Part shown: positions 166-44,441 of the stretch, one piece after another
How the letters are laid out: every line of letters starts with the position of its first letter
Numbering within the stretch: the first letter of the stretch is position 1
DNA from: a virus
Direction: 5' to 3' (one strand)
Length of the DNA stretch: 44,680 nucleotides
UHGV virus genome: UHGV-0024713
Translations under genes and position numbers: made by a program
The notes under the pieces: model-generated
Database searches by the model: none
The model's input: the letters and a program-made list of their open reading frames with translations, nothing else
What the model was told of the DNA's origin: nothing

Positions 166-495
166 ATGAATATCGACGACGCAATCGAAATGTTAACTAA
201 GACTGTTTGCAGTGAGACTAGCCGGTCATGGGCGTATACCGATGCCGTGGGTGCGGTGCTATTTGAAATCGAACGTCTGCGACTTACCGAAAAAGAATTG
301 CGCGCGAAGCTGGAATTACTCAACGGTACGGCAGCCAGCAAGCTGCAAAAGCACAATGAAGAAATGGAAGAATACAAAAAACAGGTTATCCGTCTACGTG
401 AGGAAGGTAAATCCTGGGCTATGATCGCCGAGCTAACCGGAATCAACCAGAGCACCGTGCGCTCCTGGGTACGCAATAATAAAACTTCCAAATAA
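166..495 (+). CDS. Small DNA-binding protein with coiled-coil centre and C-terminal helix-turn-helix; putative regulator
   Basis: 109-aa ORF with RBS; C-terminal segment SWAMIAELTGINQSTVRSWV has HTH character; antisense ORF 144..491 is low-complexity. Confidence 0.5.
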   Translation: MNIDDAIEMLTKTVCSETSRSWAYTDAVGAVLFEIERLRLTEKELRAKLELLNGTAASKLQKHNEEMEEYKKQVIRLREEGKSWAMIAELTGINQSTVRSWVRNNKTSK

Positions 496-499
496 GGCT

Positions 500-2770
500 A
501 TGACCATGAGTTTAATTAAATTCGCCGTAACAAGACCCGCTAAAAAAGGCGAAAAAGCCAGGGCGGAAAACTTCCAGATGACCACCGATGAATTTTTCGA
601 ATTTATCAATGACGCGAAAGAAATCTCCTCGGTGCATATCAACAAGACCGAGGATAAAGCCGAGTATGCGCGCCGCAAGCGTAAGGCCGATGGCATCGTA
701 GCGTATACCAGTGATGGCTTACGCCGCAAGACCAGCGCGGTGGACCGCTCGATCCTGTTCTTTGATATTGACCGCACCGACACTCGCACCTTGCGCCGCT
801 GCCGTAAGGCTTTCATCGACGCGGGTCTGGAACACGTATTTCACACCACTACCGGCGACCGCCACCCGCTGAAAGGAGGCACGCGTTGCGCTCGCTTCCT
901 GGTACTCACTGACAAGCCTGTACCGGCTGAAGACCTGGGCCGCGTCCAGTATGCACTATTACACCAACTGGGGCTGTCAGATGTGGACTTCGACGATTGC
1001 ACGAAAGACACAAACCGCCTTATGTACCTGCCTCACCAGCAATCGGTTGTTAAGTGTCACTATGGCAAGCGCGCCCGCGTCCGTCGTCTGCTCCGCCTGG
1101 CTGACAAGCTGGGGGTTGAGAAAGAGGAAGTTCGCCGCGAACTGACCCAGGGCGACGACGCAGTGGCAGACGGCATTCTGGACTGGTGCTTCCAGGCAGG
1201 ATTCGAGGAGTTATCTTCCGGTCGCGGTTATGAAGTGCCATGCCCTAACGAACACCTGCACAGCGGCGAAGGGTCGACGGCTATCATGGTCAAGGATGGC
1301 GAGATCCGTTTCAAGTGTATGCACACCGGCAACGAGTGTTGCTCGGAGCTAAATAGACACCAGCACCTGGCGCTACGTCTCATCGGGATACCGGACCACC
1401 TGAACGTCGAGCCACACAATATGTCCCGTAAGCAAATCGCCGCCATCCTGCCAGGTCTGGACGACGAGGAAGTCGAATCCTTATATGATCACATTGTTGA
1501 TGCGGTTGGCGACGGCGAAGAATACGGCGTGTGCACCGATGCGGATCTGGATAACGAGCCGGTCGCACTATTCAGTAAGCACGACCCGATTATCGAGGGG
1601 TTGATTAACTTTAAATCGACCTGGTACATGGCGGGTGAGTCGAATATCGGTAAATCGTTCTACGTGCTGGGCCAAATGGGCGCTGTTGCCGCCGGTATTC
1701 CGTTCGGCGGTGCGAAGGTTGTCCAGTCGCATTGCTTCTATTTCGATGCGGAAGGTGGCGAAGCCTCCCACCAGCGTAAGGAAGCATTGCAGATCAAATA
1801 TGAGCACGACCTGGACAAGCTGCACATTATCGACCTGCAATCTCGCGGCTGGGATATCACCAGCAAGTCCGGTTTGCGTGAAGTTATCAGCTTCATCAAC
1901 CGCACCGCTAACGGCGAACCGGTTGGCCTGGTGGCGTTCGACTCCCTCAACCAGACTGTTGCGCTGCGGTCTGCCGATGCTAAACCGTTTGACGAGAACA
2001 ACGCCAGCGATATGGGTGAAGTGGTCAAAGCGCTGAAGGCCATCGCGGAAAATACAGGTGGCAGTGCGGGCGTCATCCACCACCCGGCTAAAGGTGCAAA
2101 CGGCAGCAGAACCCCACGCGGGTCCGGCGCGCTGCATGGTGCTGTCGATTCTGCGTTCTTCCTGGAACAGCCGGACGACAACCAGCCCGGACAATTGAAC
2201 CTGTATCATGAGAAGTCACGTAACGGCATCAAGCAAGCGCCACGCGGCTTCGTCCTGCTCAAGTGCAAGGTTAAGGTGGATCTCCGCAAGTCCGAGGCGT
2301 TCGAGGCGCACCAGTCCACCAGCACCGGGCCAGACTTCGGCGACGTGGTCGCCGGATGGGACGTCAAGCCGATTGCCTCCACGCCACGCGACGAGACTCT
2401 CTATCTCGTACCGGTTGCCCTGGCACCGTTCGCTATTGAACAGGCGAAGGCAGCGGGCAAAGCAGCAGTTAAGGAAGAGAACACCGCCGGACCGCGCAAC
2501 GAAAAAGAGAAAGTGCTTTATGCGGCCCTGGAAAAACTGATGGAAGATAACCCGGACCATACCGGATTCAGTAAATCGGCAATTGTCCGCCAGGCGGGAT
2601 TGGCAAAAGGTGGCACATCGACGAAGGCAATCGACGATATGGTCGAGCGCGGCGTACTCGGTTTTTATACAGACCCACACACCGGGGCCATCTATGGGTC
2701 GTCTAATATCGTCATAAAAACGAATATACCCATCACGCTTTCAGCGACCGATGACGACCTGAGTGATTAG
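500..2770 (+). CDS. Primase-polymerase / helicase fusion (PrimPol-like N-domain, Zn-ribbon, P-loop helicase core, C-terminal extension)
   Basis: N-terminal ILFFDIDR acidic motif; Cys/His cluster CPNEHLHSGE...KCMHTGNECC; Walker A GESNIGKS, Walker B-like LVAFDSL, VIHHPAKG...GSGALHGAVD typical of RepA/DnaB-like P-loop helicases. Confidence 0.7.
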   Translation: MTMSLIKFAVTRPAKKGEKARAENFQMTTDEFFEFINDAKEISSVHINKTEDKAEYARRKRKADGIVAYTSDGLRRKTSAVDRSILFFDIDRTDTRTLRRCRKAFIDAGLEHVFHTTTGDRHPLKGGTRCARFLVLTDKPVPAEDLGRVQYALLHQLGLSDVDFDDCTKDTNRLMYLPHQQSVVKCHYGKRARVRRLLRLADKLGVEKEEVRRELTQGDDAVADGILDWCFQAGFEELSSGRGYEVPCPNEHLHSGEGSTAIMVKDGEIRFKCMHTGNECCSELNRHQHLALRLIGIPDHLNVEPHNMSRKQIAAILPGLDDEEVESLYDHIVDAVGDGEEYGVCTDADLDNEPVALFSKHDPIIEGLINFKSTWYMAGESNIGKSFYVLGQMGAVAAGIPFGGAKVVQSHCFYFDAEGGEASHQRKEALQIKYEHDLDKLHIIDLQSRGWDITSKSGLREVISFINRTANGEPVGLVAFDSLNQTVALRSADAKPFDENNASDMGEVVKALKAIAENTGGSAGVIHHPAKGANGSRTPRGSGALHGAVDSAFFLEQPDDNQPGQLNLYHEKSRNGIKQAPRGFVLLKCKVKVDLRKSEAFEAHQSTSTGPDFGDVVAGWDVKPIASTPRDETLYLVPVALAPFAIEQAKAAGKAAVKEENTAGPRNEKEKVLYAALEKLMEDNPDHTGFSKSAIVRQAGLAKGGTSTKAIDDMVERGVLGFYTDPHTGAIYGSSNIVIKTNIPITLSATDDDLSD

Positions 2771-35187: not shown

Positions 35188-35505
35188 TTACGCATAAAAA
35201 TTCGGGTCGCGCGATACGTCTACCAGGTAAAGGTTACTCATGCGGTTGCCGTAGTGCCCTGGTGTGCGCTGGCGACACACAACGGCGTAGCCCGGAGGGA
35301 TTGTATTGCCAGTCTCGATAATCCACGCCACGCGTGCGCCTGACAGCGTTTTGCCGTTGTATTCGATACGTGTGCCACCATCGGCGGTGTTGAGGTTGCC
35401 AATTTTGCAGCCAGTGGACTTCAGACGGATGACACCGGTCTTACTGTCGTAAGTGAAAAGCTGGTTAGTCATTGCAACCGAAAAATCGATGGCTTCGAAT
35501 GTCAT
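35188..35505 (-). CDS. Hypothetical protein (105 aa)
   Basis: ORF overlapping the methyltransferase-like gene stop. Confidence 0.45.
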   Translation of the reverse strand: MTFEAIDFSVAMTNQLFTYDSKTGVIRLKSTGCKIGNLNTADGGTRIEYNGKTLSGARVAWIIETGNTIPPGYAVVCRQRTPGHYGNRMSNLYLVDVSRDPNFYA

Positions 35506-36212
35506 TTTAAATTTTCCTCATTGACCGCTATTGCAAAGCCGCGCGGAGTGAGCGACCGGATTAATTTGGTGCGTGCTGATTTGCCTCCGAGGCGACTATA
35601 CTGCTTCGAGTACCCTTTTTCAACGAATACAGGCTTTTTCTCCGGCATACGGAAGCCGTTGCCGGTCCATAAGCAGGTCAGCTTCGGATACGAATCGCGA
35701 GCGTTGATATATTCCGGGAACAACGGGTGTACGTCATCCTCCGGTAGATAGCCGCCATACTCCCACGGGTCAAACGAGTGGTCTGGCTTACGCCACTGTG
35801 TGGAAAGCACACTGCGCGGATTCTCAATCATATACGGCACCTCAAAGAAGTCACCCAGAAAAGCGGCGATCTTCGCGGTGCGCACTGCCTTAAGCTGAAA
35901 GGCCGGATCTTTTGCACGCTTGCGCGGGAATGCTTGCGCACCGCTAACTGCCAGATCCGTACACGGCGGGAAAGCGTATATGATATCCGGCGTACCGAAA
36001 TCCCCATTCATCGCGCGGTCCACGAAATCCAGATCGATAAACTCATTACGGTATCGGATACCGCGACCATAAATACGGTAGTCCAGGTACGACCCATGAT
36101 CGGCTTCGGAGTAGTTGAAACAGTAGCATTTGTGCCCCATTTCGGCAGCACGCTCTATCATCAAGCCGCTGCCGTCAAACAACGACCAGATAGTCATTTT
36201 TGCAATAGTCAC
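35502..36212 (-). CDS. C5-cytosine DNA methyltransferase-like protein, unusually short (236 aa)
   Basis: Motif I-like LFDGSG, PC-motif FPPCTDLAVSG, ENV-like YMIENPRSV in canonical order. Confidence 0.55.
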   Translation of the reverse strand: MTIAKMTIWSLFDGSGLMIERAAEMGHKCYCFNYSEADHGSYLDYRIYGRGIRYRNEFIDLDFVDRAMNGDFGTPDIIYAFPPCTDLAVSGAQAFPRKRAKDPAFQLKAVRTAKIAAFLGDFFEVPYMIENPRSVLSTQWRKPDHSFDPWEYGGYLPEDDVHPLFPEYINARDSYPKLTCLWTGNGFRMPEKKPVFVEKGYSKQYSRLGGKSARTKLIRSLTPRGFAIAVNEENLK

Positions 36213-37633
36213 CTGCGCCCCTTCTTAGCTTTCATGTATTCCATCAAGTCGTCCTGAATATCTCGCTTACTGTCGCGACGCTCGGCGACCAATTCATCCA
36301 GTGTCCCGCGCGCCTGGATAATGTAGACGAATACCGGACGGGGGTGTCCTGCTTGCATCTGGCGAACCGGCCCTATACGCTCCACAATCTGCGAAAAGTG
36401 CTCATAGTTCCAGGTGTCTGAGAAGATAGCAAGGTGGTGTCCGCCGTCCTGCAGGTTAAGTCCGTGACCCGCCGATGCCGGGTGTGCAAACATGATGGGG
36501 ATCTCGCCCCTGTTCCACGCTTCCATATCCTTATTCCCTTGCTTACCCTTACCCATCGCTACGCCGTGCGGGAATTTCTTCTTGAGACGCGCCAGATCAT
36601 GCTTGTACTGGTATGCGACGAGCAACGGCGCGCCGTTCAACTCCTCCACGATACTTTCCAGCGCGTCCAGTTTGGCGTCGTGAATTTTCACCCATTCATC
36701 AGTGCGCTCGCCGTCTTCGTCGACTTTATACACGGCACCCGAAGCAAGCTGAAGGCACTTAATAGTCTTCGACGCAGCGTTCGCGGCCTCCACAGTTCCG
36801 CTTTCCAGTTCAGCAAATAGCTCCGCTTCGAACTGGTCGTATATTTTGCGGGCTTTCTTAGGCAGGTCCACAACAACAGGCGTATAGATTGGCTTGTCAC
36901 ATCCGAAGTATTCAGCCGCGTCAACGGTAAGGGATACGTCGGACAGACGTTGTTGTATTTCTTTCTCGGAGTTTTTTAGCGGGGCGTGCTGCATAGTGAA
37001 GCTGCCAGGCTTAACCGGCTTGCTAATAAACCAGCGGTCTGTGAATGCCTCATAACTACTGCCGAGGCGTTCGCCACCATCGACAAACCACGTCTGACCC
37101 CATAAGTCCTTCAGCCCGTTTGGTGCGGGTGTGCCGGTTAGGTTAATCCAGCGTTTGACGTGCTTATGCGCAATAGCCGCCAGGGCGCGGGCGCGCTTAC
37201 TGCCCTGCTTGCTGCGGTAGCCTTTCAGCTTAGTGGATTCATCGGCAACAACGACCGTAAAGGGCCACTCGTCGCCGCAATACTCGACAAGCCACTCAAC
37301 CACATCATAGTTAACACAAACCACGTTAGCGTCGCTCTCAAGCGCAGCTATGCGGTCCTTCTCTGGTCCGGTGCCGTCTACTACCAGCAGGGCAGGGAAG
37401 CGCCATTTTTCTTGCTCCGGGGGCCATGTACCGGACGCAACGCGCAGCGGGGCCAGCACCAGTACGCGGTCCTCCTGGTTGGATAGGATGCCGGTCTGGA
37501 ACATTTTATTCAGCGCCCACATAGTCGCGCCGGTTTTACCCGACCCCATTGTCGCCCATATATTGCATCGCTTATGCTTGAGGATGAACGCGGTTATCAA
37601 CTTCTGATATTCGCGACGTCGGAAACGTGCCAT
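36209..37633 (-). CDS. SNF2/DEAD-like superfamily-2 helicase
   Basis: Motif I MGSGKTGA, motif II VVVADESTK, motif III LTGTP; start at internal ATG. Confidence 0.8.
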   Translation of the reverse strand: MARFRRREYQKLITAFILKHKRCNIWATMGSGKTGATMWALNKMFQTGILSNQEDRVLVLAPLRVASGTWPPEQEKWRFPALLVVDGTGPEKDRIAALESDANVVCVNYDVVEWLVEYCGDEWPFTVVVADESTKLKGYRSKQGSKRARALAAIAHKHVKRWINLTGTPAPNGLKDLWGQTWFVDGGERLGSSYEAFTDRWFISKPVKPGSFTMQHAPLKNSEKEIQQRLSDVSLTVDAAEYFGCDKPIYTPVVVDLPKKARKIYDQFEAELFAELESGTVEAANAASKTIKCLQLASGAVYKVDEDGERTDEWVKIHDAKLDALESIVEELNGAPLLVAYQYKHDLARLKKKFPHGVAMGKGKQGNKDMEAWNRGEIPIMFAHPASAGHGLNLQDGGHHLAIFSDTWNYEHFSQIVERIGPVRQMQAGHPRPVFVYIIQARGTLDELVAERRDSKRDIQDDLMEYMKAKKGRR

Positions 37634-37637
37634 ATCT

Positions 37638-37871
37638 TTATTCCGCCTTTTTCCAGACTTCGGTTTCACTGTTCCAATTCCTTTTTGTGGCGTCGTAGTT
37701 GGTGCGGTGCCCGATGTGCACACCCGTCGCCCGGAAGCTCTTAAATTTTTGCCAGCATACCGTCAACGGCAGCGGGTCATTCATGCCCGCGATAAACCAT
37801 ACGCGATCGCCCGGTTTACATTCGCCCAGCTTGGTGAGTCGGTAATGATCTTTCATCGTCATGTCTCCCAA
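37638..37871 (-). CDS. Hypothetical protein (77 aa)
   Basis: Small ORF between the helicase and zinc-ribbon genes. Confidence 0.4.
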   Translation of the reverse strand: MGDMTMKDHYRLTKLGECKPGDRVWFIAGMNDPLPLTVCWQKFKSFRATGVHIGHRTNYDATKRNWNSETEVWKKAE

Positions 37872-37899
37872 AAATGGCGGGACAAGCCCGCCGTATTAG

Positions 37900-38073
37900 T
37901 TATTTTTGTTCCGCACGGTAGCGGCGCTGCCGTTCGCGCTCTTTCTTATTGCGGCACGATTTGCACTCGGCCCGATACCCGTCTGGACTGCGCGCAGTTT
38001 TACCGGTGTATTTGTGGAACTGGGATAGCGGCTTGACGCAGCCGCAGTTACTACAACGTTTTTCTTCAATCAT
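37900..38073 (-). CDS. Small zinc-ribbon protein (57 aa)
   Basis: CSNCGC...CKSC four-Cys pattern; start at internal ATG. Confidence 0.4.
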   Translation of the reverse strand: MIEEKRCSNCGCVKPLSQFHKYTGKTARSPDGYRAECKSCRNKKERERQRRYRAEQK

Positions 38074-38113
38074 CTCTAAAATCCTCGATATGGCTAACCG
38101 GCACACTATACCG

Positions 38114-38392
38114 CTACGCGACCAATTCAGCAACCAATAAATCACAGTCGGCTATGCTGTCGATGACGCGAACGTCAGCGCCTCGGCGGGCCATTCGCTC
38201 ATGTTCACGTACCTGGTGCGGCTTCGGTTTTCCTCCTGGGCGCTTCACTTCGACGAACACTATTTTGCCGTTGATGATGATAATCAGGTCGGGCGCACCT
38301 ACGCGCCCCTCCCAGGCCATTTTGCGGCAGAATCCGCCTACCTCTTTCACCCGTCGCATCAGGTGTCTTTGGATCTTGCCCTCGGGTGTCAT
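38114..38392 (-). CDS. VRR-NUC domain nuclease
   Basis: PDLIIIINGKIVFVEVKRPGGKPKPHQ (PD...EVK) and size typical of VRR-NUC; start overlaps the polymerase stop. Confidence 0.7.
   Translation of the reverse strand: MTPEGKIQRHLMRRVKEVGGFCRKMAWEGRVGAPDLIIIINGKIVFVEVKRPGGKPKPHQVREHERMARRGADVRVIDSIADCDLLVAELVA
38118..38138 (-). promoter_or_regulatory. Promoter candidate with motif pair inside the 3' end of the VRR-NUC gene
   Basis: Minus strand ATTGGTTGCTGAATTGGTCGCG then TATAGT; -35 TTGCTG, 17-nt spacer. Confidence 0.4.
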
Positions 38393-40683
38393 TATTTCCT
38401 GTACCTGTACATGATGTCGCCTTCCGCGGCAAGCGGGAAGCCTTTCGCCCAAACCGGCAGGTCGCACATCAGCGCGCACAACTCCTCGGTTGTGTAGTCG
38501 TCAGTGTCCGGAACTTCGGTGATCAGTTCATCGTGTACCGACAGTACGATCTCATAGCCAGCGGCCTCAACACCCGGCATGGACCATGCGAGAATATCGC
38601 GGCACAGCGCCTGCACTATGTTTTCCGTCAGTTTGCCGCCGTAGGTATACTGGAAGCCCCACTGGCGCGTAGTCTGATTCTCGCCCTGGTATTTGATGCG
38701 GGTACTGGTGCGCTTCTTGCCGGTGTCTTCGGCAATCTCGGTCGTGACAGACAGCGCAATGCCTGGATAACTCATAATACGCCCCGACGGCAACTCAATT
38801 TTAAGCCACCACCCCGCTGCGTTCGGGTCGTCGCGCTCCTCGTCGAAGGTTGGGTCATGCTTCGCCTTCGTGCGAACAATCTTGAGCGCTTTCTTGCCAT
38901 CAGGGCGAACGTGCGCGCCAGCCCAGTATGCCTTGCCAGGGTTGCGAATTGCGCATAACACCGCATACTCAAGCTCGGCCCAAAATGCTACGGTCTTCGG
39001 GTGGGCCTCACGCCACATGCGTTTGATCGCGTCGCATGTCAGCCACACGTTTTTAGGCAGTATGTAGGTTGGACGCTCGTCTTTCTTGCCAGGCTTCGGC
39101 GGGCGCTTCGCTTCGTTAATGCGAGCGTACTCATAACCACGCTTCGCCGCCGCCCAAATGTGATCCGGGAATGTGCCCTTCATGACGTCTGCCATCGCGT
39201 ACAGGTCCAGGCCCAGGTTTTTAGCGAACTGCAAGAACGCCGCGACGCCGCCACCGTAGCCCAGGCCAAGCTCGCAAGCCTTCCCGATCTGACGTAAATC
39301 CTTGCGGTTGGCTTTAATGTATTCCGGATCGAGGCCGAACATCTTACCGGCAGTCTCACAATAAATATCGCGACCGGCCCTAAACACCATTAGCGCGGTT
39401 TTCTCGCCAGCGATCCAGGCAAGCCCGCGCCCTTCCACGTTGGAGTAATCCGCTACGACAAACTTCTTACCCTTAGCAGGGATAATGCACCCGCGAACGG
39501 TTGAGGCGGTTAACTTCGATATGTCATACGCCCAGTGCGCGGTGCCGCGTAACAGGGAGTTGATACCGTTGGTGAGCATGTGCGACCGGACCCAAAACGA
39601 GACGTCGCTTTCTCCTTCGCGGCGTTTAATCTTCCCTTCGTGGTCGTCACTATAATCGCCGCGCGCCAGGTTTTGAGGCTGAAAGCCTTTACCAGCCCAG
39701 CGCAGCGTGCGCTTTGCTCCTCCATACTGAAGACAACCACGGCGGCGACCGTCGGCAGACAGACCATTTACGAGCGGATTGTACTTAGTCGATGCCGTTG
39801 ATGACGCACCGAGACGCATCTCAATCAGCGCTTTGCCCTCGTCGGGGAAGTCCGGGTCTTCAAGCAAATCGTTCAGCGTGGATTTCTGCGCGTTATGGAT
39901 CGTGAACGCCGGGGCGATATCACGCAGGATTGGCAGGAAGTCGTTGCCTGTTAGCTTACCGCCGAACCGCTCCCATGCCTCCTCCTTCAATTCTTCCTTA
40001 TGCGCCTGCACCGCCTTGATCGCGGCGTTCGCCAGGTCAACGTCCACATGGAAGCCGCGGTCATTAATCAACTGGTCGATGAGCAGGATTTCGTCTTCTT
40101 TCGGAGAGTTGCCCCAGTCCGGTATGCGCCAGTAGACTTCGCGCATTGCCACAATATCCAGCGCGGCGTAGCGCAGGAATTTGGCCCACTCTTCAGGGTG
40201 TGTCTCGCGCGTGTAACGGCGGATTTTGTAGGTTTTAGGGGTAGGCTTACAGAACCGTTTGATCAGCGCCTTGCCGGCCTTATCCTTTGCGTGTTCCGCG
40301 TCAACGCCCAGTACCTGACACTGCATATCGAGGCTACCCGGCAGCGCGTGGCGGAATGCCATAATCATGGTATCCTCGATCTGGCTTACCGGCAGGTCGA
40401 TGCCCCACTTCTCACGGATAACCAGGCGGTCGAACAGGAGGCCGTTAGCCATCACTATTTTAGCCTTCTTGCGCGATACCCGGCGCAGCGCCTTGCGTAG
40501 TTCGCGCGGCATTGTGGGGGACTCAGTGGCATCCCATGTCTGCACGCGGCCCTCGTCGATGGCGTAGGTGCAAATCATAATCTCGGTTGATGGGTGTTCT
40601 GCGTAGGCGTACGCGCCTACTTTCTTCAGGTCCACACCGCTAAATGTCTCGGTGTCGAGAAACAGGCGTTCGAAGTCTTTCAT
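38392..40683 (-). CDS. Family A DNA polymerase with 3'-5' exonuclease domain
   Basis: Exo I FLDTETFS; motif A DYSNVEGR; motif B RQIGKACELGLGYGGG; motif C VLSVHDEL. Confidence 0.9.
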   Translation of the reverse strand: MKDFERLFLDTETFSGVDLKKVGAYAYAEHPSTEIMICTYAIDEGRVQTWDATESPTMPRELRKALRRVSRKKAKIVMANGLLFDRLVIREKWGIDLPVSQIEDTMIMAFRHALPGSLDMQCQVLGVDAEHAKDKAGKALIKRFCKPTPKTYKIRRYTRETHPEEWAKFLRYAALDIVAMREVYWRIPDWGNSPKEDEILLIDQLINDRGFHVDVDLANAAIKAVQAHKEELKEEAWERFGGKLTGNDFLPILRDIAPAFTIHNAQKSTLNDLLEDPDFPDEGKALIEMRLGASSTASTKYNPLVNGLSADGRRRGCLQYGGAKRTLRWAGKGFQPQNLARGDYSDDHEGKIKRREGESDVSFWVRSHMLTNGINSLLRGTAHWAYDISKLTASTVRGCIIPAKGKKFVVADYSNVEGRGLAWIAGEKTALMVFRAGRDIYCETAGKMFGLDPEYIKANRKDLRQIGKACELGLGYGGGVAAFLQFAKNLGLDLYAMADVMKGTFPDHIWAAAKRGYEYARINEAKRPPKPGKKDERPTYILPKNVWLTCDAIKRMWREAHPKTVAFWAELEYAVLCAIRNPGKAYWAGAHVRPDGKKALKIVRTKAKHDPTFDEERDDPNAAGWWLKIELPSGRIMSYPGIALSVTTEIAEDTGKKRTSTRIKYQGENQTTRQWGFQYTYGGKLTENIVQALCRDILAWSMPGVEAAGYEIVLSVHDELITEVPDTDDYTTEELCALMCDLPVWAKGFPLAAEGDIMYRYRK

Positions 40684-40850
40684 TGCTTTATCCTCACTAC
40701 GGCGTCAGCGTTGCCGATCATGGAGAAGATGCCGTCGGAAAGGGTTATCTCCTCGCCGTTGTTGCGAATCTCGGCAACGGTGAAATATTCGCCCAGCAAT
40801 TTGGACCACACCTGCATTCCGACTTTTACTTCGCTGGCTTTAATACGCAT
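40680..40850 (-). CDS. Small hypothetical protein (56 aa), coupled to the polymerase gene
   Basis: Stop overlaps the polymerase ATG (ATGA); under 60 aa so absent from the ORF track. Confidence 0.4.
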   Translation of the reverse strand: MRIKASEVKVGMQVWSKLLGEYFTVAEIRNNGEEITLSDGIFSMIGNADAVVRIKQ

Positions 40851-40862
40851 TTTTCATTGTCC

Positions 40863-40889
40863 TATTAAAAAGCCCGCATTAAGCGGGCT
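40863..40889 (-). terminator. Intrinsic terminator (minus strand) after the SSB-like gene
   Basis: Minus strand AGCCCGC-ttaa-TGCGGGCT followed by TTTT. Confidence 0.6.
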
Positions 40890-40908
40890 TGAATAGAGGG
40901 CTTTGCCC

Positions 40909-41691
40909 TTAACGGCGGCGACGTTTACGTGGTGCTTCGTCGTCGTCTTCGTCCTCATCTTCGTCATCGCGGGGCTTACGACGCTTGCGAGGTTTTGCAT
41001 CTTCCTCATCGTCATCGTCATCGCGGCGCTTTGATTTTTTGGACTTGCGCGGCTTGTCATCTTCGTCATCGTCATCACGACGTTTTGACTTCTTAGACTT
41101 GCGCGGTGCTTCGTCTTCGTCGTCGTTGTCCAGGTCTTCATCAGAGCAAGAAGACCCGCCACCCCCGAAGGCTTCCCCGTCTTCACGGAAGCGCAGCCCC
41201 AGCAATCCCGCACCGAGTCCCTTGCCGTTGGTGTTGTTCCACGCCCAAATATCGAGTGACACGTTGCAATAGCAACCGGAATAGATTTCCTGGCCTTCGA
41301 TCTCGTCGCCTTCAACCGTCAGACCTTGTTCAGTCTGCTTCTCGCCAAGTGACGTTTGGATGTTCGGCTGTTTGAACGATTTGGCGTTGATGTACAACAT
41401 GCCTTCAAACTCTTCGGTTACTTCGTCGCGCTCGTCACCGTCGCGAACTGCGCATTCCTTAGAGTCCTGTGCGTAATGGCGGTCCATCCACTTATCGGCA
41501 TTCTTCTCGGATTTCAGCTTGTCGGTGAGCACTGCGCGCGCTGCCGCTTCCACTTTGTCCACCTGCGGATCTTCTTTATCCAGAAGAATCACGGCACGGT
41601 ATGCCGGTTTTTGTCCATCCTGTTTAGGGGTGTCACGTTCCCAAATTTTCAGGAAACATACGCGCACATTTTTCAGGTTGACTTTAGCCAT
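40909..41691 (-). CDS. ssDNA-binding-like protein (DUF2815-type by recollection) with long alternating acidic/basic C-terminal tail
   Basis: Start at internal ATG with GAGGA RBS; N-terminus MAKVNLKNVRVCF; C-terminal 85 aa made of PRKSKKSKRR / DDDDEDD repeats; position beside the polymerase. Confidence 0.45.
   Translation of the reverse strand: MAKVNLKNVRVCFLKIWERDTPKQDGQKPAYRAVILLDKEDPQVDKVEAAARAVLTDKLKSEKNADKWMDRHYAQDSKECAVRDGDERDEVTEEFEGMLYINAKSFKQPNIQTSLGEKQTEQGLTVEGDEIEGQEIYSGCYCNVSLDIWAWNNTNGKGLGAGLLGLRFREDGEAFGGGGSSCSDEDLDNDDEDEAPRKSKKSKRRDDDDEDDKPRKSKKSKRRDDDDDEEDAKPRKRRKPRDDEDEDEDDDEAPRKRRRR
41005..41120 (-). repeat. Tandem DNA repeats (about 55-57 bp units) encoding the charged C-terminal tail
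   Basis: tcatcgtcatcgtcatcgcggcgctttgatttttt... repeated with variation. Confidence 0.6.
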
Positions 41692-41746
41692 TTTCCAATT
41701 CCTCATTTTCACATGTATCGGGGTTATTGTGAGCCACCCCGTTCGG

Positions 41747-41772
41747 CTTGGTTGCCAATCTACTTGGTTGCG
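41747..41772 (+). promoter_or_regulatory. Direct pair of CTTGGTTGC(C/G) motif variants upstream of the SSB-like gene
   Basis: CTTGGTTGCC (41747-41756) and CTTGGTTGCG (41763-41772). Confidence 0.35.
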
Positions 41773-41781
41773 CCTAAGCGG

Positions 41782-42024
41782 TCAAGCATTTTCATTAAAA
41801 AGATTTCGGGTCACGTAGTTGGTGGCGTTCTCGATCCAGCTTAGCGGCGGGCGTTCGATGTTCTTTTCCACCCAGGCGACGGCAACTTCGCTATAGCCGT
41901 CATCCAGCCAGCGGGTCGGATGGCGAATCATCCACGCCACCATTAACACGCCTTGCACGCAATGCAGGATAAAGCCCAGCGCGCCGAGCAAAAACATCAA
42001 TAAGATTGCGAATACTTTATTCAT
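41782..42024 (-). CDS. Small membrane protein (80 aa)
   Basis: N-terminal hydrophobic helix; overlaps the upstream gene stop. Confidence 0.45.
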   Translation of the reverse strand: MNKVFAILLMFLLGALGFILHCVQGVLMVAWMIRHPTRWLDDGYSEVAVAWVEKNIERPPLSWIENATNYVTRNLFNENA

Positions 42025-43447
42025 TGCTTAAGTCCTCGTCAGTAGCTTCCGACCACGCAGGGCGAGGGTCGTCGATTGGTGCTAATACCGGTTTGGCGGG
42101 TGCGCGCGTGATTTTATCACACAGCTTCGCCCACACTTTTGGTTTTTCGTCCTTCAATACCTTCTCTGCATCCGTAGGGCTGAGCAATGTTTCTTTGTAC
42201 ATCACATCGCGCTTGATCCGTGCCTTCGTGAAGATTTCAATCACTTCGCTCTCGTCCGCCCACTTGCGGATTCCTTCCTTACCGGCAACCATCTTGAGGC
42301 CAAGCGATTCGCCATCACCCGCCATTACAGCCTTAAACACCGCGGACTCGATAGCCTTGATGTGCTGGCGCATTGCGTCCAGGCCTTCATAAGCCTTGCG
42401 CAGTTCCGCGGCGGTCATAGCGCCTGGTGTGGCTTCCTTCTTGCCACGCTTCGCACGTCGTGCCGCCTTCCTGGCTTCGCGGGCCATATTGCGGTCATGG
42501 TTGGCGCATTCTTCCTCTGTCGCAATACTCACGTCGTCGCCCAGGTCTTCGTCGGTTGCCGTTGGGGGTGTCATAGTGTCGATTGCGGCCTTAGCGCGGG
42601 CACTACACTGATCCGCAAATCGGCACCACTGGCACGCATCAACGCTGGGACGGAAGTCGGCACGGGTAAGTCCCCTCTTGCCTCGGGAATACGCCTCCAG
42701 TGAGGCAATAGCGCGCTTGGATGCAAACTTCGCGAATATCTCCAGCGCTTCTACCGAAATATCCCACTCCGACGCCCCGCCGCAATACGGCTGGAAGATA
42801 ACCAGGCGAACGGTCGTAATGTCGTACATAGTTTGCAGCTTGCGCAGCAGTCCGAGCGCGTACAACATAAGCTGTTTGTTCTCTTTCGCCTCGACCTTAT
42901 GCCGCCCGGTCTTCAGGTCGCCAACAATCAGCATGTACGTCCCATCGGTCTTTTTCATGACCATGACCATATCGGCAGTACCGAACGTTTTAATCCTGTT
43001 GCCGTCGATCTCGTAGCCTGAGTGAAGGACGCGGGTCAGATCGGCGCGCATCTCAAGCTGGACAAACTCCGCCACTTCGAGGAGCGGTCGCCAGTGGTCG
43101 ATGTACGCGTCGCACTGTTTCACCATGTCGTCGTTGACCAGTACGCCGCCTTTCGGTGCTTTCGGGTGTGCCTTTACCGGCCCCTTTCCTTCGTTCTCGA
43201 CGTAGCACCCTTTATACGTCTTCGCGGTTATCAGCTTCTCACCGGCGATAATGCGGTTTAGCACCACTTCAGATACGGTGTGCATACTCGTACCGTTAAT
43301 CGCGGCTTGCCCGGATTCGTTCGGGATATCTTTTTCCACCACCAGGGCCGCAGGGCAACCCATCCACTTTTTAGCACCGGATGGCCCAAGTAATGAGTGT
43401 TCTGTATTGCTACCGGATTGCGTTTTACGTTTTGGTTTAATCGCCAT
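42017..43447 (-). CDS. PD-(D/E)XK nuclease, Cas4/RecB-like (DUF2800-type by recollection) with C-terminal Cys cluster
   Basis: 476 aa; CQWCRFADQC Cys cluster typical of Fe-S Cas4-like nucleases; position in the replication operon. Confidence 0.6.
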   Translation of the reverse strand: MAIKPKRKTQSGSNTEHSLLGPSGAKKWMGCPAALVVEKDIPNESGQAAINGTSMHTVSEVVLNRIIAGEKLITAKTYKGCYVENEGKGPVKAHPKAPKGGVLVNDDMVKQCDAYIDHWRPLLEVAEFVQLEMRADLTRVLHSGYEIDGNRIKTFGTADMVMVMKKTDGTYMLIVGDLKTGRHKVEAKENKQLMLYALGLLRKLQTMYDITTVRLVIFQPYCGGASEWDISVEALEIFAKFASKRAIASLEAYSRGKRGLTRADFRPSVDACQWCRFADQCSARAKAAIDTMTPPTATDEDLGDDVSIATEEECANHDRNMAREARKAARRAKRGKKEATPGAMTAAELRKAYEGLDAMRQHIKAIESAVFKAVMAGDGESLGLKMVAGKEGIRKWADESEVIEIFTKARIKRDVMYKETLLSPTDAEKVLKDEKPKVWAKLCDKITRAPAKPVLAPIDDPRPAWSEATDEDLSNE

Positions 43448-43626
43448 TATTCCACCCGTGTAAACTGGACAATTACATATTTCACATTTGCCAGGCCCGC
43501 TTTTTCGACTCGGCGCTTAACTTCATTTTGCGCGTCCACAAAGCAATTGCTTGCGTTGGTGTTTTCAACAATAAAAGAAGTGTGGTCGTTTAATTCGTGG
43601 CATGTTGCCAGCACGAAGAATTTCAT
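43447..43626 (-). CDS. Small hypothetical protein (59 aa), translationally coupled
   Basis: Start overlaps upstream stop and stop overlaps the nuclease ATG (TAATG). Confidence 0.4.
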   Translation of the reverse strand: MKFFVLATCHELNDHTSFIVENTNASNCFVDAQNEVKRRVEKAGLANVKYVIVQFTRVE

Positions 43627-43877
43627 TATTTCGTCTCCCAGCGGTCAATCGTTCTTGCTTCGGATGCAACCGCAAAGCGAACATATTCCAGATTGGAGTC
43701 CGCCCAAATATAAAAGTCGGGGTTAGTAAAGGTGGTGCGCTTAATTTGCGCGGGGGTGTTACGGCGTTTATCTATTACGGCAACTCGTGACTGAAAGCTG
43801 CCGATGCGTTCGAATAGCCAATAGTACGGGCGCTGGTCGCGGGAGTCCACCGCCTCAATTAGCGTGAAGCGTGCCAT
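43626..43877 (-). CDS. Hypothetical protein (83 aa)
   Basis: GAGGA RBS; first gene after the upstream terminator. Confidence 0.5.
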   Translation of the reverse strand: MARFTLIEAVDSRDQRPYYWLFERIGSFQSRVAVIDKRRNTPAQIKRTTFTNPDFYIWADSNLEYVRFAVASEARTIDRWETK

Positions 43878-43890
43878 TGTCTCGTCCTCT

Positions 43891-43917
43891 AAAAATAGGC
43901 CCGCAGATTAGCGGGCC
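43891..43917 (-). terminator. Intrinsic terminator (minus strand) after the charged-repeat protein gene
   Basis: Minus strand GGCCCGC-taatct-GCGGGCC followed by TATTTTT. Confidence 0.6.
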
Positions 43918-43925
43918 GGATAATA

Positions 43926-44441
43926 TTAATCTTCCAGTTCGAAATAAGTTTCGACGATTTCTTTAAGATCTTTGTGGAAGTCTTCGACGTCTTCATCTTC
44001 CAGCTTGGCGATTGATTTGATCTCGAACGATTCCAGCAGGTCGTCAAATTCGTCGTTCGCGTCGTCGTCGTCACCACCGGCAATAATAGCGGCATATTGT
44101 TTGATTTCGTCGCGCATCTCCGCCAGCGGATCGGCATCTTTCTTGCCTTTGCCTTTCGCCGGGGCTTTTTTAGATTTAGCCGGTTTTTCGTCTTCGGCAT
44201 CATCGTCGTCATCTTCTACGACTTCTTTTTTGGCCTTACCTTTCGCAGGGGCTTTTTTAGATTTAGCCGGTTTTTCGTCTTCGGCGTCATCGTCGTCATC
44301 TTCTACGACTTCTTTCTTGGCCTTAGACGGCTTCTTGTCTTCCTGCTTACCAACGGCAGCGCCAACGGTTTCATAATGCTTAGCGATGGTTTCCAGTGCT
44401 ACTACGCCGCGAGTAATCAGGTTTACGATTTGTTCAAACAT
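43926..44441 (-). CDS. Highly charged tandem-repeat protein (171 aa) with alternating poly-Asp/Glu and Lys/Ala-rich blocks
   Basis: Two near-perfect 28-aa repeats KKEVVEDDDDDAEDEKPAKSKKAPAKGK; GGAGA RBS; own terminator. Confidence 0.65.
   Translation of the reverse strand: MFEQIVNLITRGVVALETIAKHYETVGAAVGKQEDKKPSKAKKEVVEDDDDDAEDEKPAKSKKAPAKGKAKKEVVEDDDDDAEDEKPAKSKKAPAKGKGKKDADPLAEMRDEIKQYAAIIAGGDDDDANDEFDDLLESFEIKSIAKLEDEDVEDFHKDLKEIVETYFELED
44150..44320 (-). repeat. 84-bp tandem duplication (2 copies) inside the charged-repeat gene
   Basis: ...cgccggggcttttttagatttagccggtttttcgtcttcggcatcatcgtcgtcatcttctacgacttc... repeated with 2-3 substitutions. Confidence 0.7.

Follow-up and report, generated by a model that had tools for sequence, protein, structure and literature searches.

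Two small conserved genes in the replication operon of a Dhillonvirus genome, UHGV-0024713

The Enc34-type or 'Nazgul-like' replication module comprises a primase, a DUF2815/gp2.5-type protein that binds single-stranded DNA (SSB), a family-A DNA polymerase, a VRR-NUC nuclease, a helicase and several hypothetical proteins, and the structure of the Enc34 SSB, ORF6, has been solved (PMC5686142). The virus genome UHGV-0024713, a stretch of 44,680 nucleotides analysed here over its whole length (the window), has a module of the same composition, and its SSB matches PF10991, the Pfam family named after Enc34. We concentrate on positions 36209-43877 and on two micro-ORFs (very small open reading frames) within them: m56, of 56 amino acids (40680-40850), and m59, of 59 amino acids (43447-43626), for which the Enc34 paper names no corresponding small genes (PMC5686142). 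We assign a probability of about 0.7 to the reading that this is a known Dhillonvirus/Enc34-type replication operon carrying genuine, lineage-restricted accessory micro-ORFs in insertion-prone slots, neither of them an obligatory part of the replisome.

The genomes of the genus Dhillonvirus (HK578, SSL-2009a, JL1, StarDew and the BASEL phages Bas14-18, KarlBarth for example) are 91-94% identical to the window across this region, with identical gene order. When 36209-43877 was compared by megablast with 50,697 phage records, 161 related records were retrieved, 148 of them at 90-95% identity. Nearly all the close records were Escherichia/Shigella phages of this genus, and the top match, Shigella phage StarDew, covered 100% of the query at 94.1% nucleotide identity. 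In length and gene content the window matches a whole Dhillonvirus genome, circularly permuted, and its genes follow the order annotated in StarDew, KarlBarth, NHEP3 and EE09. These comparisons identify the region as the usual early/replication operon found in an HK578/SO-1-like Dhillonvirus, a siphophage of E. coli. The replication gene block has already been sequenced, and both small genes already called, in more than 150 genomes. Differences from the other Dhillonviruses are allelic only: the window has the 59-amino-acid allele of m59 (54 records) and not the 62-amino-acid one (100 records), and its polymerase (PolA) lacks the presumed intein carried by PolA of EP23 and Pubbukkers. In Bas17 KarlBarth, m59 is identical to that of the window and m56 is 96% identical. 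At loci L044, L045 and L058-L065, the polA match extends over ~3.1 kb instead of 2.3 kb, with an in-frame insertion of ~300 amino acids that is presumably an intein (EP23-like; the Pubbukkers product is annotated as 'intein-containing DNA polymerase').

In all, ~80 loci were retrieved through PolA and scored for presence or absence of m56. The DUF2800 nuclease, the family-A polymerase, the VRR-NUC nuclease and the SNF2 helicase keep their order on one strand throughout these loci, down to a PolA identity of 35%. The clade at 61-66% PolA identity corresponds by megablast to Jerseyvirus and Kagunavirus (Salmonella phage SETP13, for example) and has the order DUF2800-SSB-hairpin-PolA-VRR-NUC-helicase seen here. 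The sequence-only reading had described a self-contained replication module. A replication module it is, although not a self-contained one, since the replicative primase-helicase is encoded outside it, at 500-2770 on the plus strand.

Both micro-ORFs lie exactly where that reading had placed them, with stops that overlap the next start codons. They fill gaps on the coding strand that would otherwise be empty. Their supposed invisibility to gene calling holds only in so far as a 60-amino-acid cut-off hides them: in StarDew, KarlBarth, NHEP3 and EE09 they are annotated as coding sequences for hypothetical proteins. m56 matches phrog_10102 from end to end, with its residues 1-56 aligned to positions 1-56 of the profile (E = 7e-42), and m59 matches phrog_9934 over its full length (E = 2.2e-38), both families being labelled as of unknown function in PHROG. 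We estimated the ratio of non-synonymous to synonymous polymorphism (pN/pS) by a Nei-Gojobori-type method on ungapped alignments of the Dhillonvirus loci that had been fetched. From 17 distinct sequences m56 gave a ratio of 0.083, and from 7 sequences m59 gave 0.273, compared with 0.044 for polA, 0.076 for the SSB gene and 0.057 for the nuclease gene. In the two other frames of m56 and m59, it ranged from 1.2 to 3.3 (3.3 and 1.8 for m56), so that purifying selection is seen in the annotated frame only. Because the in-frame ratios are low and the off-frame ones are not, the micro-ORFs evolve as proteins in that frame and are conserved in frame among relatives, as the sequence-only reading required of real genes. 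Judged by their substitution patterns, both are protein-coding genes under purifying selection.

m56 was detected by tblastn in 155 of the 161 related phage records. A word-indexed protein search with it returned only near-identical proteins from close relatives, and a scan of IMG/VR with the family alignment returned Dhillonviruses only. An exhaustive HMMER profile search of 1.84 billion representatives yielded 11 hits, three of which were discarded as spurious: two long repeat proteins (P0023 and P0024) and an 86-amino-acid, repeat-containing protein (P0028). The eight further homologues are stand-alone proteins of 45-69 amino acids, with 36-49% identity and the common pattern GM(R/Q)VWS.LL.EYFTV...L.DGI(F/Y). 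The same search found no m56 domain in larger proteins or in polymerase fusions. Seven remote homologues were checked in their contigs, and all seven stand right after an Enc34-type ssb and a hairpin of the same type, 5' of polA. In six of the seven, stop and polA start overlap, by 4-14 nucleotides; in L092, an ORF of 58 amino acids intervenes. The phages concerned have PolA proteins 65-84% identical to that of the window, and on the HMMER search and the PolA tree the family is found only in Dhillonvirus-related enterobacterial lineages. Together, these gene neighbourhoods show the positional link between the m56 family and polA to be real and apparently old.

The link is not universal. Among the ~80 PolA loci, m56 is absent from L014 (PolA 81% identical), from L046, from the whole Jerseyvirus/Kagunavirus clade and from the outgroup at 35-41%; it does not accompany its polymerase lineage throughout. 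Loci without m56 keep the order ssb-hairpin-polA, polA following the hairpin and a Shine-Dalgarno sequence across a gap of 48-97 nucleotides unless another gene fills the slot. In Jerseyvirus/Kagunavirus-type relatives such occupants, unrelated to m56, overlap the polA start: a cysteine-rich ORF, a cysteine/histidine-rich ORF or an HNH homing endonuclease gene (Table 1). The ssb/polA slot looks like an insertion hot spot. A neighbour-joining tree of PolA places m56-bearing lineages on several deep branches, the basal L092 included, and the distribution is most simply explained by a single ancient gain and a number of later losses.

Two natural variants of m56 were also seen. Phage Ioannina (L004, 5001-5123) has a 48-nucleotide, in-frame deletion of 16 codons inside m56 that leaves 40 amino acids, both ends of the gene and the ATGA overlap. 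In phage Zumzum (L005, 1501-1669), a one-nucleotide insertion in a run of G cuts m56 to 48 amino acids and may be a sequencing error. The records of StarDew (gp41), YD-2008.s, ZCEC10 and Henu5_1 give it the label 'putative DNA polymerase (1)'. We rejected the identification of m56 as a DNA polymerase, having found neither homology to polymerases nor fusions with them, and for the same reason the label looks like an artefact of adjacency. Neither micro-ORF has a match in Pfam, NCBIfam or the sequences of the PDB. The AlphaFold model of m56, mostly beta and built on a shallow alignment, is poor (predicted local distance difference test score, pLDDT, 54), and no fold comparison was based on it.

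m59 presents a different pattern of variation. The allele of the window (allele A) was found by tblastn in 54 records. The remaining genomes have, in exactly the same place, a 62-amino-acid ORF (allele B, MAIFFVLFRC...YIAQFSRVE; 100 records) that matches phrog_9934 as well (E = 1.4e-35), and the two alleles together account for ~154 of the 161 records. We therefore rejected the view of m59 as an accessory gene of one third of the genus, since the rest have a family member too, in the form of a divergent allele. Alleles A and B are 34-38% identical and share a predicted fold (match to the 62-amino-acid form in BFVD, template modelling score 0.75, E = 5e-4). At L052, the flanks of m59 are 98.2% and 96.4% identical to those of the window while the ORF itself cannot be aligned. 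By such alignments m59 is a sharply bounded dimorphism, in which similarity breaks down within the ORF and nowhere else, and not a case of gradual divergence. A gene so dimorphic and fast-evolving is atypical of a core machine component; its pattern suggests contact with a partner that varies, and speaks against a subunit that co-evolves with an enzyme.

Word-indexed protein searches with m59 returned close relatives only, and tblastn gave no match to it in Jerseyvirus/Kagunavirus. In L091, L095 and L097, ORFs of 53-59 amino acids occupy the m59 slot, between the 83-amino-acid-family gene and DUF2800, and are related to m59 at profile level (hhalign probability 91%, E = 1e-6). The AlphaFold model of m59 is confident (pLDDT 92) and consists of a beta-hairpin, a helix and a strand (beta-beta-alpha-beta). 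Foldseek found no significant match to it in the PDB (best E, 0.6-1.7), and in BFVD the fold search returned uncharacterised small phage proteins only. The fold neighbours at chance level (E >1) include T7 Gp2 and the uracil-DNA glycosylase inhibitor p56, a lead and not evidence.

The stop-start overlaps that had drawn attention to the micro-ORFs are ATGA at the m56/polA junction (...AAGCAATGAAAG...) and TAATG at the m59/nuclease junction (...GGAATAATGGCG...), and the 83-amino-acid gene meets m59 in a similarly close arrangement (...GAAATAATGAAA...). By their coordinates, the genes from 44441 down to 35188 form 13 consecutive junctions, and overlaps of 1-8 nucleotides occur at 7 of these. Other overlapping junctions include polA/VRR-NUC (1 nucleotide), nuclease/80-amino-acid gene (8), helicase/methyltransferase (4) and methyltransferase/HNH (4). 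Stop-start overlap is an operon-wide style of packing and not special to the micro-ORFs. Both micro-ORFs are preceded by Shine-Dalgarno sequences, that of m56 being an AGGA after the hairpin. polA has its own GAGGA, and no significant structure was found in the messenger RNA on either side of its start (z ~0), and so no sign of a buried start that would need coupling. Translational coupling between m56 and polA is accordingly possible and not demonstrably required.

On the coding strand of the operon, intergenic gaps of any size are found in three places only, and a terminator-like hairpin lies in each. The three hairpins divide the operon into the 83-amino-acid gene, m59, nuclease, 80-amino-acid gene and ssb; then m56, polA, VRR-NUC and zinc ribbon; then the 77-amino-acid gene, helicase, methyltransferase and what follows. 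Inside these units, overlaps of 1-8 nucleotides join the majority of the genes. The 62-nucleotide stretch between ssb and m56 folds to -25.3 kcal/mol (z -4.5). A GC-rich hairpin with a U run was kept after ssb in every relative examined, whether m56 was present or absent, across Dhillonvirus, Jerseyvirus/Kagunavirus-type and uncultivated relatives (L014, L024, L058 and L090-L097 among them). It looks like a conserved attenuator that would part abundant SSB from the polymerase unit. We propose that it attenuates transcription, giving much SSB and little polymerase, because SSB is needed in bulk and is among the few phage proteins detected by mass spectrometry. The polymerase unit would then be expressed by read-through, and m56 would come first on the resulting transcript. 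After terminating at the m56 UGA, ribosomes could reinitiate at the overlapping polA AUG, which would keep m56 roughly in step with PolA, and overlapping stops and starts within the units would likewise tie together the translation of adjacent cistrons.

An accessory role in the replisome, which the sequence-only reading had raised, would make m56 a processivity or bridging factor produced 1:1 with PolA by coupling, and would perhaps tie m59 to the DUF2800 nuclease, as one of its subunits or as its regulator. It would agree with the finding of the m56 family only beside polA, in the genus and in 7/7 remote homologues, with the retention of the overlap in varied forms (1-14 nucleotides), with the strong purifying selection on m56 (pN/pS 0.083) and with the Ioannina deletion, which is in frame and keeps the ATGA; the m59 homologues, for their part, stay directly 5' of the nuclease gene. 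T7 polymerase uses thioredoxin as its processivity factor, and the acidic tail of T7 gp2.5 binds the polymerase; here, from sequence alone, a family-A polymerase is likewise paired with a gp2.5-type SSB with a charged C-terminal tail. However, m56 shows no similarity to T7 thioredoxin or any known polymerase cofactor, and searches of Pfam, NCBIfam and PDB sequences and, for m59, of folds linked neither micro-ORF to any known clamp or to any processivity or bridging factor. m56 is missing from many lineages with the same module and a PolA 61-81% identical, no insertion or deletion in PolA tracks its presence, unrelated genes fill its slot elsewhere, and one natural isolate has lost 16 of its codons. 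The repeated loss beside very similar polymerases, the want of a PolA correlate and the foreign occupants of the slot weaken the idea for m56, while m59 alleles 35% identical, against 96-99% for the nuclease, are hard to square with a tightly co-evolving subunit. We consider such a role for the micro-ORFs improbable. A leader ORF, with a role that lies in its being translated (to bring ribosomes to polA or to counteract the terminator) and not in its peptide, would suit the position of m56 as the first ORF past the hairpin and the preservation of both its ends in the deletion variant. It is very unlikely: selection acts on the amino-acid sequence of m56, the residue pattern persists in homologues at 36-49% identity, polA has its own Shine-Dalgarno sequence in a start region with no significant structure, and relatives without m56 express polA straight after the hairpin.

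The small class II genes around gene 5 of T7 are a precedent for host-directed genes in slots of this kind, and both micro-ORFs could be early proteins for host takeover or counter-defence, placed in insertion-tolerant positions of an early operon. They are small, of narrow lineage and free of known domains; in sister lineages the ssb/polA slot is filled by an HNH endonuclease or by small genes of other kinds; m59 is dimorphic with sharp mosaic borders, and its nearest fold neighbours, non-significant as they are (E >1), include T7 Gp2 and p56. The genus also carries small dispensable proteins that interact with immunity, Ksap1 (PMC11564622) and anti-Tmn (PMC11846954). Ksap1, a 74-amino-acid activator of KpAvs2 whose deletion mutants are viable, is encoded between methyltransferase and phosphatase genes, and this KpAvs2 trigger has been reported just beyond the methyltransferase in SECphi18 (PMC11564622); anti-Tmn is ORF35 of phiSMS22 and combines a helical rod with a beta-sheet (PMC11846954). 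m56 and m59 resemble the two in being small and genus-restricted; they are different genes, and their identification with Ksap1 or anti-Tmn was rejected. Against a host-directed role for both stand the slow evolution of m56 within the genus, comparable to that of SSB, its never being found away from polA, the non-significance of the m59 fold matches and the lack of any reported anti-defence activity for either in the cited literature, and we regard it as rather unlikely for the pair.

For the individual genes within our preferred reading, of accessory and non-obligatory micro-ORFs, our best guess for m56 is tentative: a dispensable small beta-protein with the polymerase as its partner or target. 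A possible second choice, held with still less assurance, is an early protein directed at the host. m59 may well be a protein of beta-beta-alpha-beta fold that evolves fast and interacts with a varying partner, for instance a host factor or a defence system, although even this best guess falls somewhat short of even odds; a modulator of the adjacent nuclease is an unlikely second. More speculative, and decidedly doubtful, is the combination in which m56 would be an unrecognised small cofactor of phage family-A polymerases, made in step from the overlapping cistron and binding PolA, for example as a link to the SSB tail or for processivity, its losses being compensated otherwise, and in which, separately, the m59 dimorphism could mark a specificity switch in a conflict between host and phage.

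Several points weigh against the reading that we prefer. For a host-directed 'moron', m56 has an unusually low pN/pS and is unusually persistent beside polA in lineages where the family itself is only 36-50% identical; both features may fit a true polymerase partner. The sole infected-cell proteome found for a Dhillonvirus, that of EE09, detected four phage proteins in total, among them SSB (CDS61) and the acidic protein (CDS56), and neither m56 nor m59 is one of the four (PMC10673088); a literature search for ribosome profiling of Dhillonvirus gave nothing relevant. The functions proposed for the micro-ORFs are read from position and evolution only, the structure model of m56 is unreliable, and the PolA tree was a quick neighbour-joining one, so that the number of independent m56 losses is uncertain.

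The remaining genes were assigned to families by Pfam and PHROG profile searches (Table 1). The helicase, the VRR-NUC nuclease, the polymerase, the SSB, the Cas4-like nuclease, the zinc ribbon and the hydrophobic 80-amino-acid protein, all named in the sequence-only reading, were confirmed on the minus strand at the positions given there. A helicase coding sequence of identical length (1,425 nucleotides, 474 amino acids) is annotated in KarlBarth and NHEP3, and we consider the ATG start likelier than a 504-amino-acid GTG form because the GTG extension would overlap the upstream gene. The 57-amino-acid zinc ribbon has further matches to endonuclease VII/HNH PHROGs, in their N-terminal zinc portion. 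The translation of the DUF2800 nuclease contains a Cas4-like cysteine pattern, C31 plus C-x2-C-x5-C (CQWCRFADQC); by its PD-(D/E)XK core and cysteine cluster the protein fits a Cas4-like nuclease, and its iron-sulfur binding is a prediction. Homologues of the 83-amino-acid protein, ~30% identical, lie 5' of DUF2800 in Jerseyvirus/Kagunavirus-type loci. The plus-strand genes at 166-495 and 500-2770 are divergent from the minus-strand replication operon, as are gp48 and gp49 of StarDew, and the intergenic region between the primase-helicase side and the operon crosses the ends of the window.

Table 1. Features of the replication region of UHGV-0024713 and occupants of the ssb/polA slot in related loci (aa, amino acids; nt, nucleotides; HTH, helix-turn-helix)
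Feature	Position	Strand	Evidence or remarks
StarDew gp48 homologue, small HTH/'transposase'-like gene	166-495	+	sequence comparison
Replicative primase-helicase, StarDew gp49 homologue	500-2770	+	phrog_3228 E 0
HNH (homing) endonuclease gene	35188-35505	-	4-nt overlap with methyltransferase gene
Dcm-like C5 cytosine methyltransferase gene	35502-36212	-	downstream of helicase, 4-nt overlap
SNF2-family DNA helicase, 474 aa from ATG	36209-37633	-	PF00176 E 7.9e-11; phrog_62 E 1.9e-156
77-aa protein, phrog_9291	37638-37871	-	PHROG; pN/pS 0.13
Terminator-like hairpin, between zinc-ribbon and 77-aa genes	37876-37892	-	-12 kcal/mol, z -2.8
57-aa zinc ribbon, CxxC...CxxC	37900-38073	-	phrog_5558 'Lar-like restriction alleviation' E 6.5e-17
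VRR-NUC nuclease, 92 aa	38114-38392	-	PF08774 E 5e-6; phrog_93
Family-A DNA polymerase (PolA), 763 aa	38392-40683	-	PF00476; phrog_17 E 2.5e-131; pN/pS 0.044
m56, 56 aa, phrog_10102	40680-40850	-	stop overlaps polA start, ATGA; pN/pS 0.083
Intrinsic-terminator-like hairpin, between ssb and m56	40865-40890	-	GCCCGC-UUAAU-GCGGGC + U run
Enc34/T7 gp2.5-type SSB	40909-41712	-	PF10991 E 6.2e-32, above Pfam cut-off; phrog_112
80-aa protein, hydrophobic N-terminus, phrog_11211	41782-42024	-	PHROG; pN/pS 0.21
DUF2800 PD-(D/E)XK Cas4-like nuclease, 476 aa	42017-43447	-	PF10926 E 3e-66; PF12705 E 4.4e-8; phrog_69 'exonuclease'
m59, 59 aa, phrog_9934	43447-43626	-	1-nt stop/start overlaps on both sides; pN/pS 0.273
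83-aa protein, phrog_4965	43626-43877	-	first gene after terminator-like hairpin; pN/pS 0.05
Terminator-like hairpin, 5' of 83-aa gene	43898-43917	-	-17.2 kcal/mol, z -2.7
StarDew gp47 homologue, 171-aa acidic protein	43926-44441	-	sequence comparison
51-aa Cys-rich ORF in ssb/polA slot	5855-6010 in L017, L036, L038, L040, L050; 1753-1908 in L018		
92-aa Cys/His-rich ORF in ssb/polA slot	5714-5992 in L033, L042, L053, L056		
165-aa HNH homing endonuclease in ssb/polA slot	L025, L028; 2093-2590 in L025		

For those who work on Dhillonvirus or the BASEL collection, the locus offers a 56-amino-acid family locked between ssb and polA across lineages at 36-50% m56 identity, yet repeatedly lost, and a 59-amino-acid gene for which the genus has two alleles with sharp boundaries. 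Either could prove to be a polymerase helper or a host-interaction factor; the rest is routine annotation of a well-sampled coliphage genus.

A minor observation concerns low-complexity sequence. The C-terminal tail of the SSB is repetitive and of mixed charge, and tandem mixed-charge repeats, variable in length among relatives, are found both in this tail (40909-41110, minus strand) and in the 171-amino-acid acidic protein (43926-44441, minus strand); examples from the two are DDDDEDDKPRKSKKSKRR and KPAKSKKAPAKGK.KKEVVEDDDDDAEDE. The EE09 homologue of the acidic protein is CDS56, which was detected in infected cells (PMC10673088).

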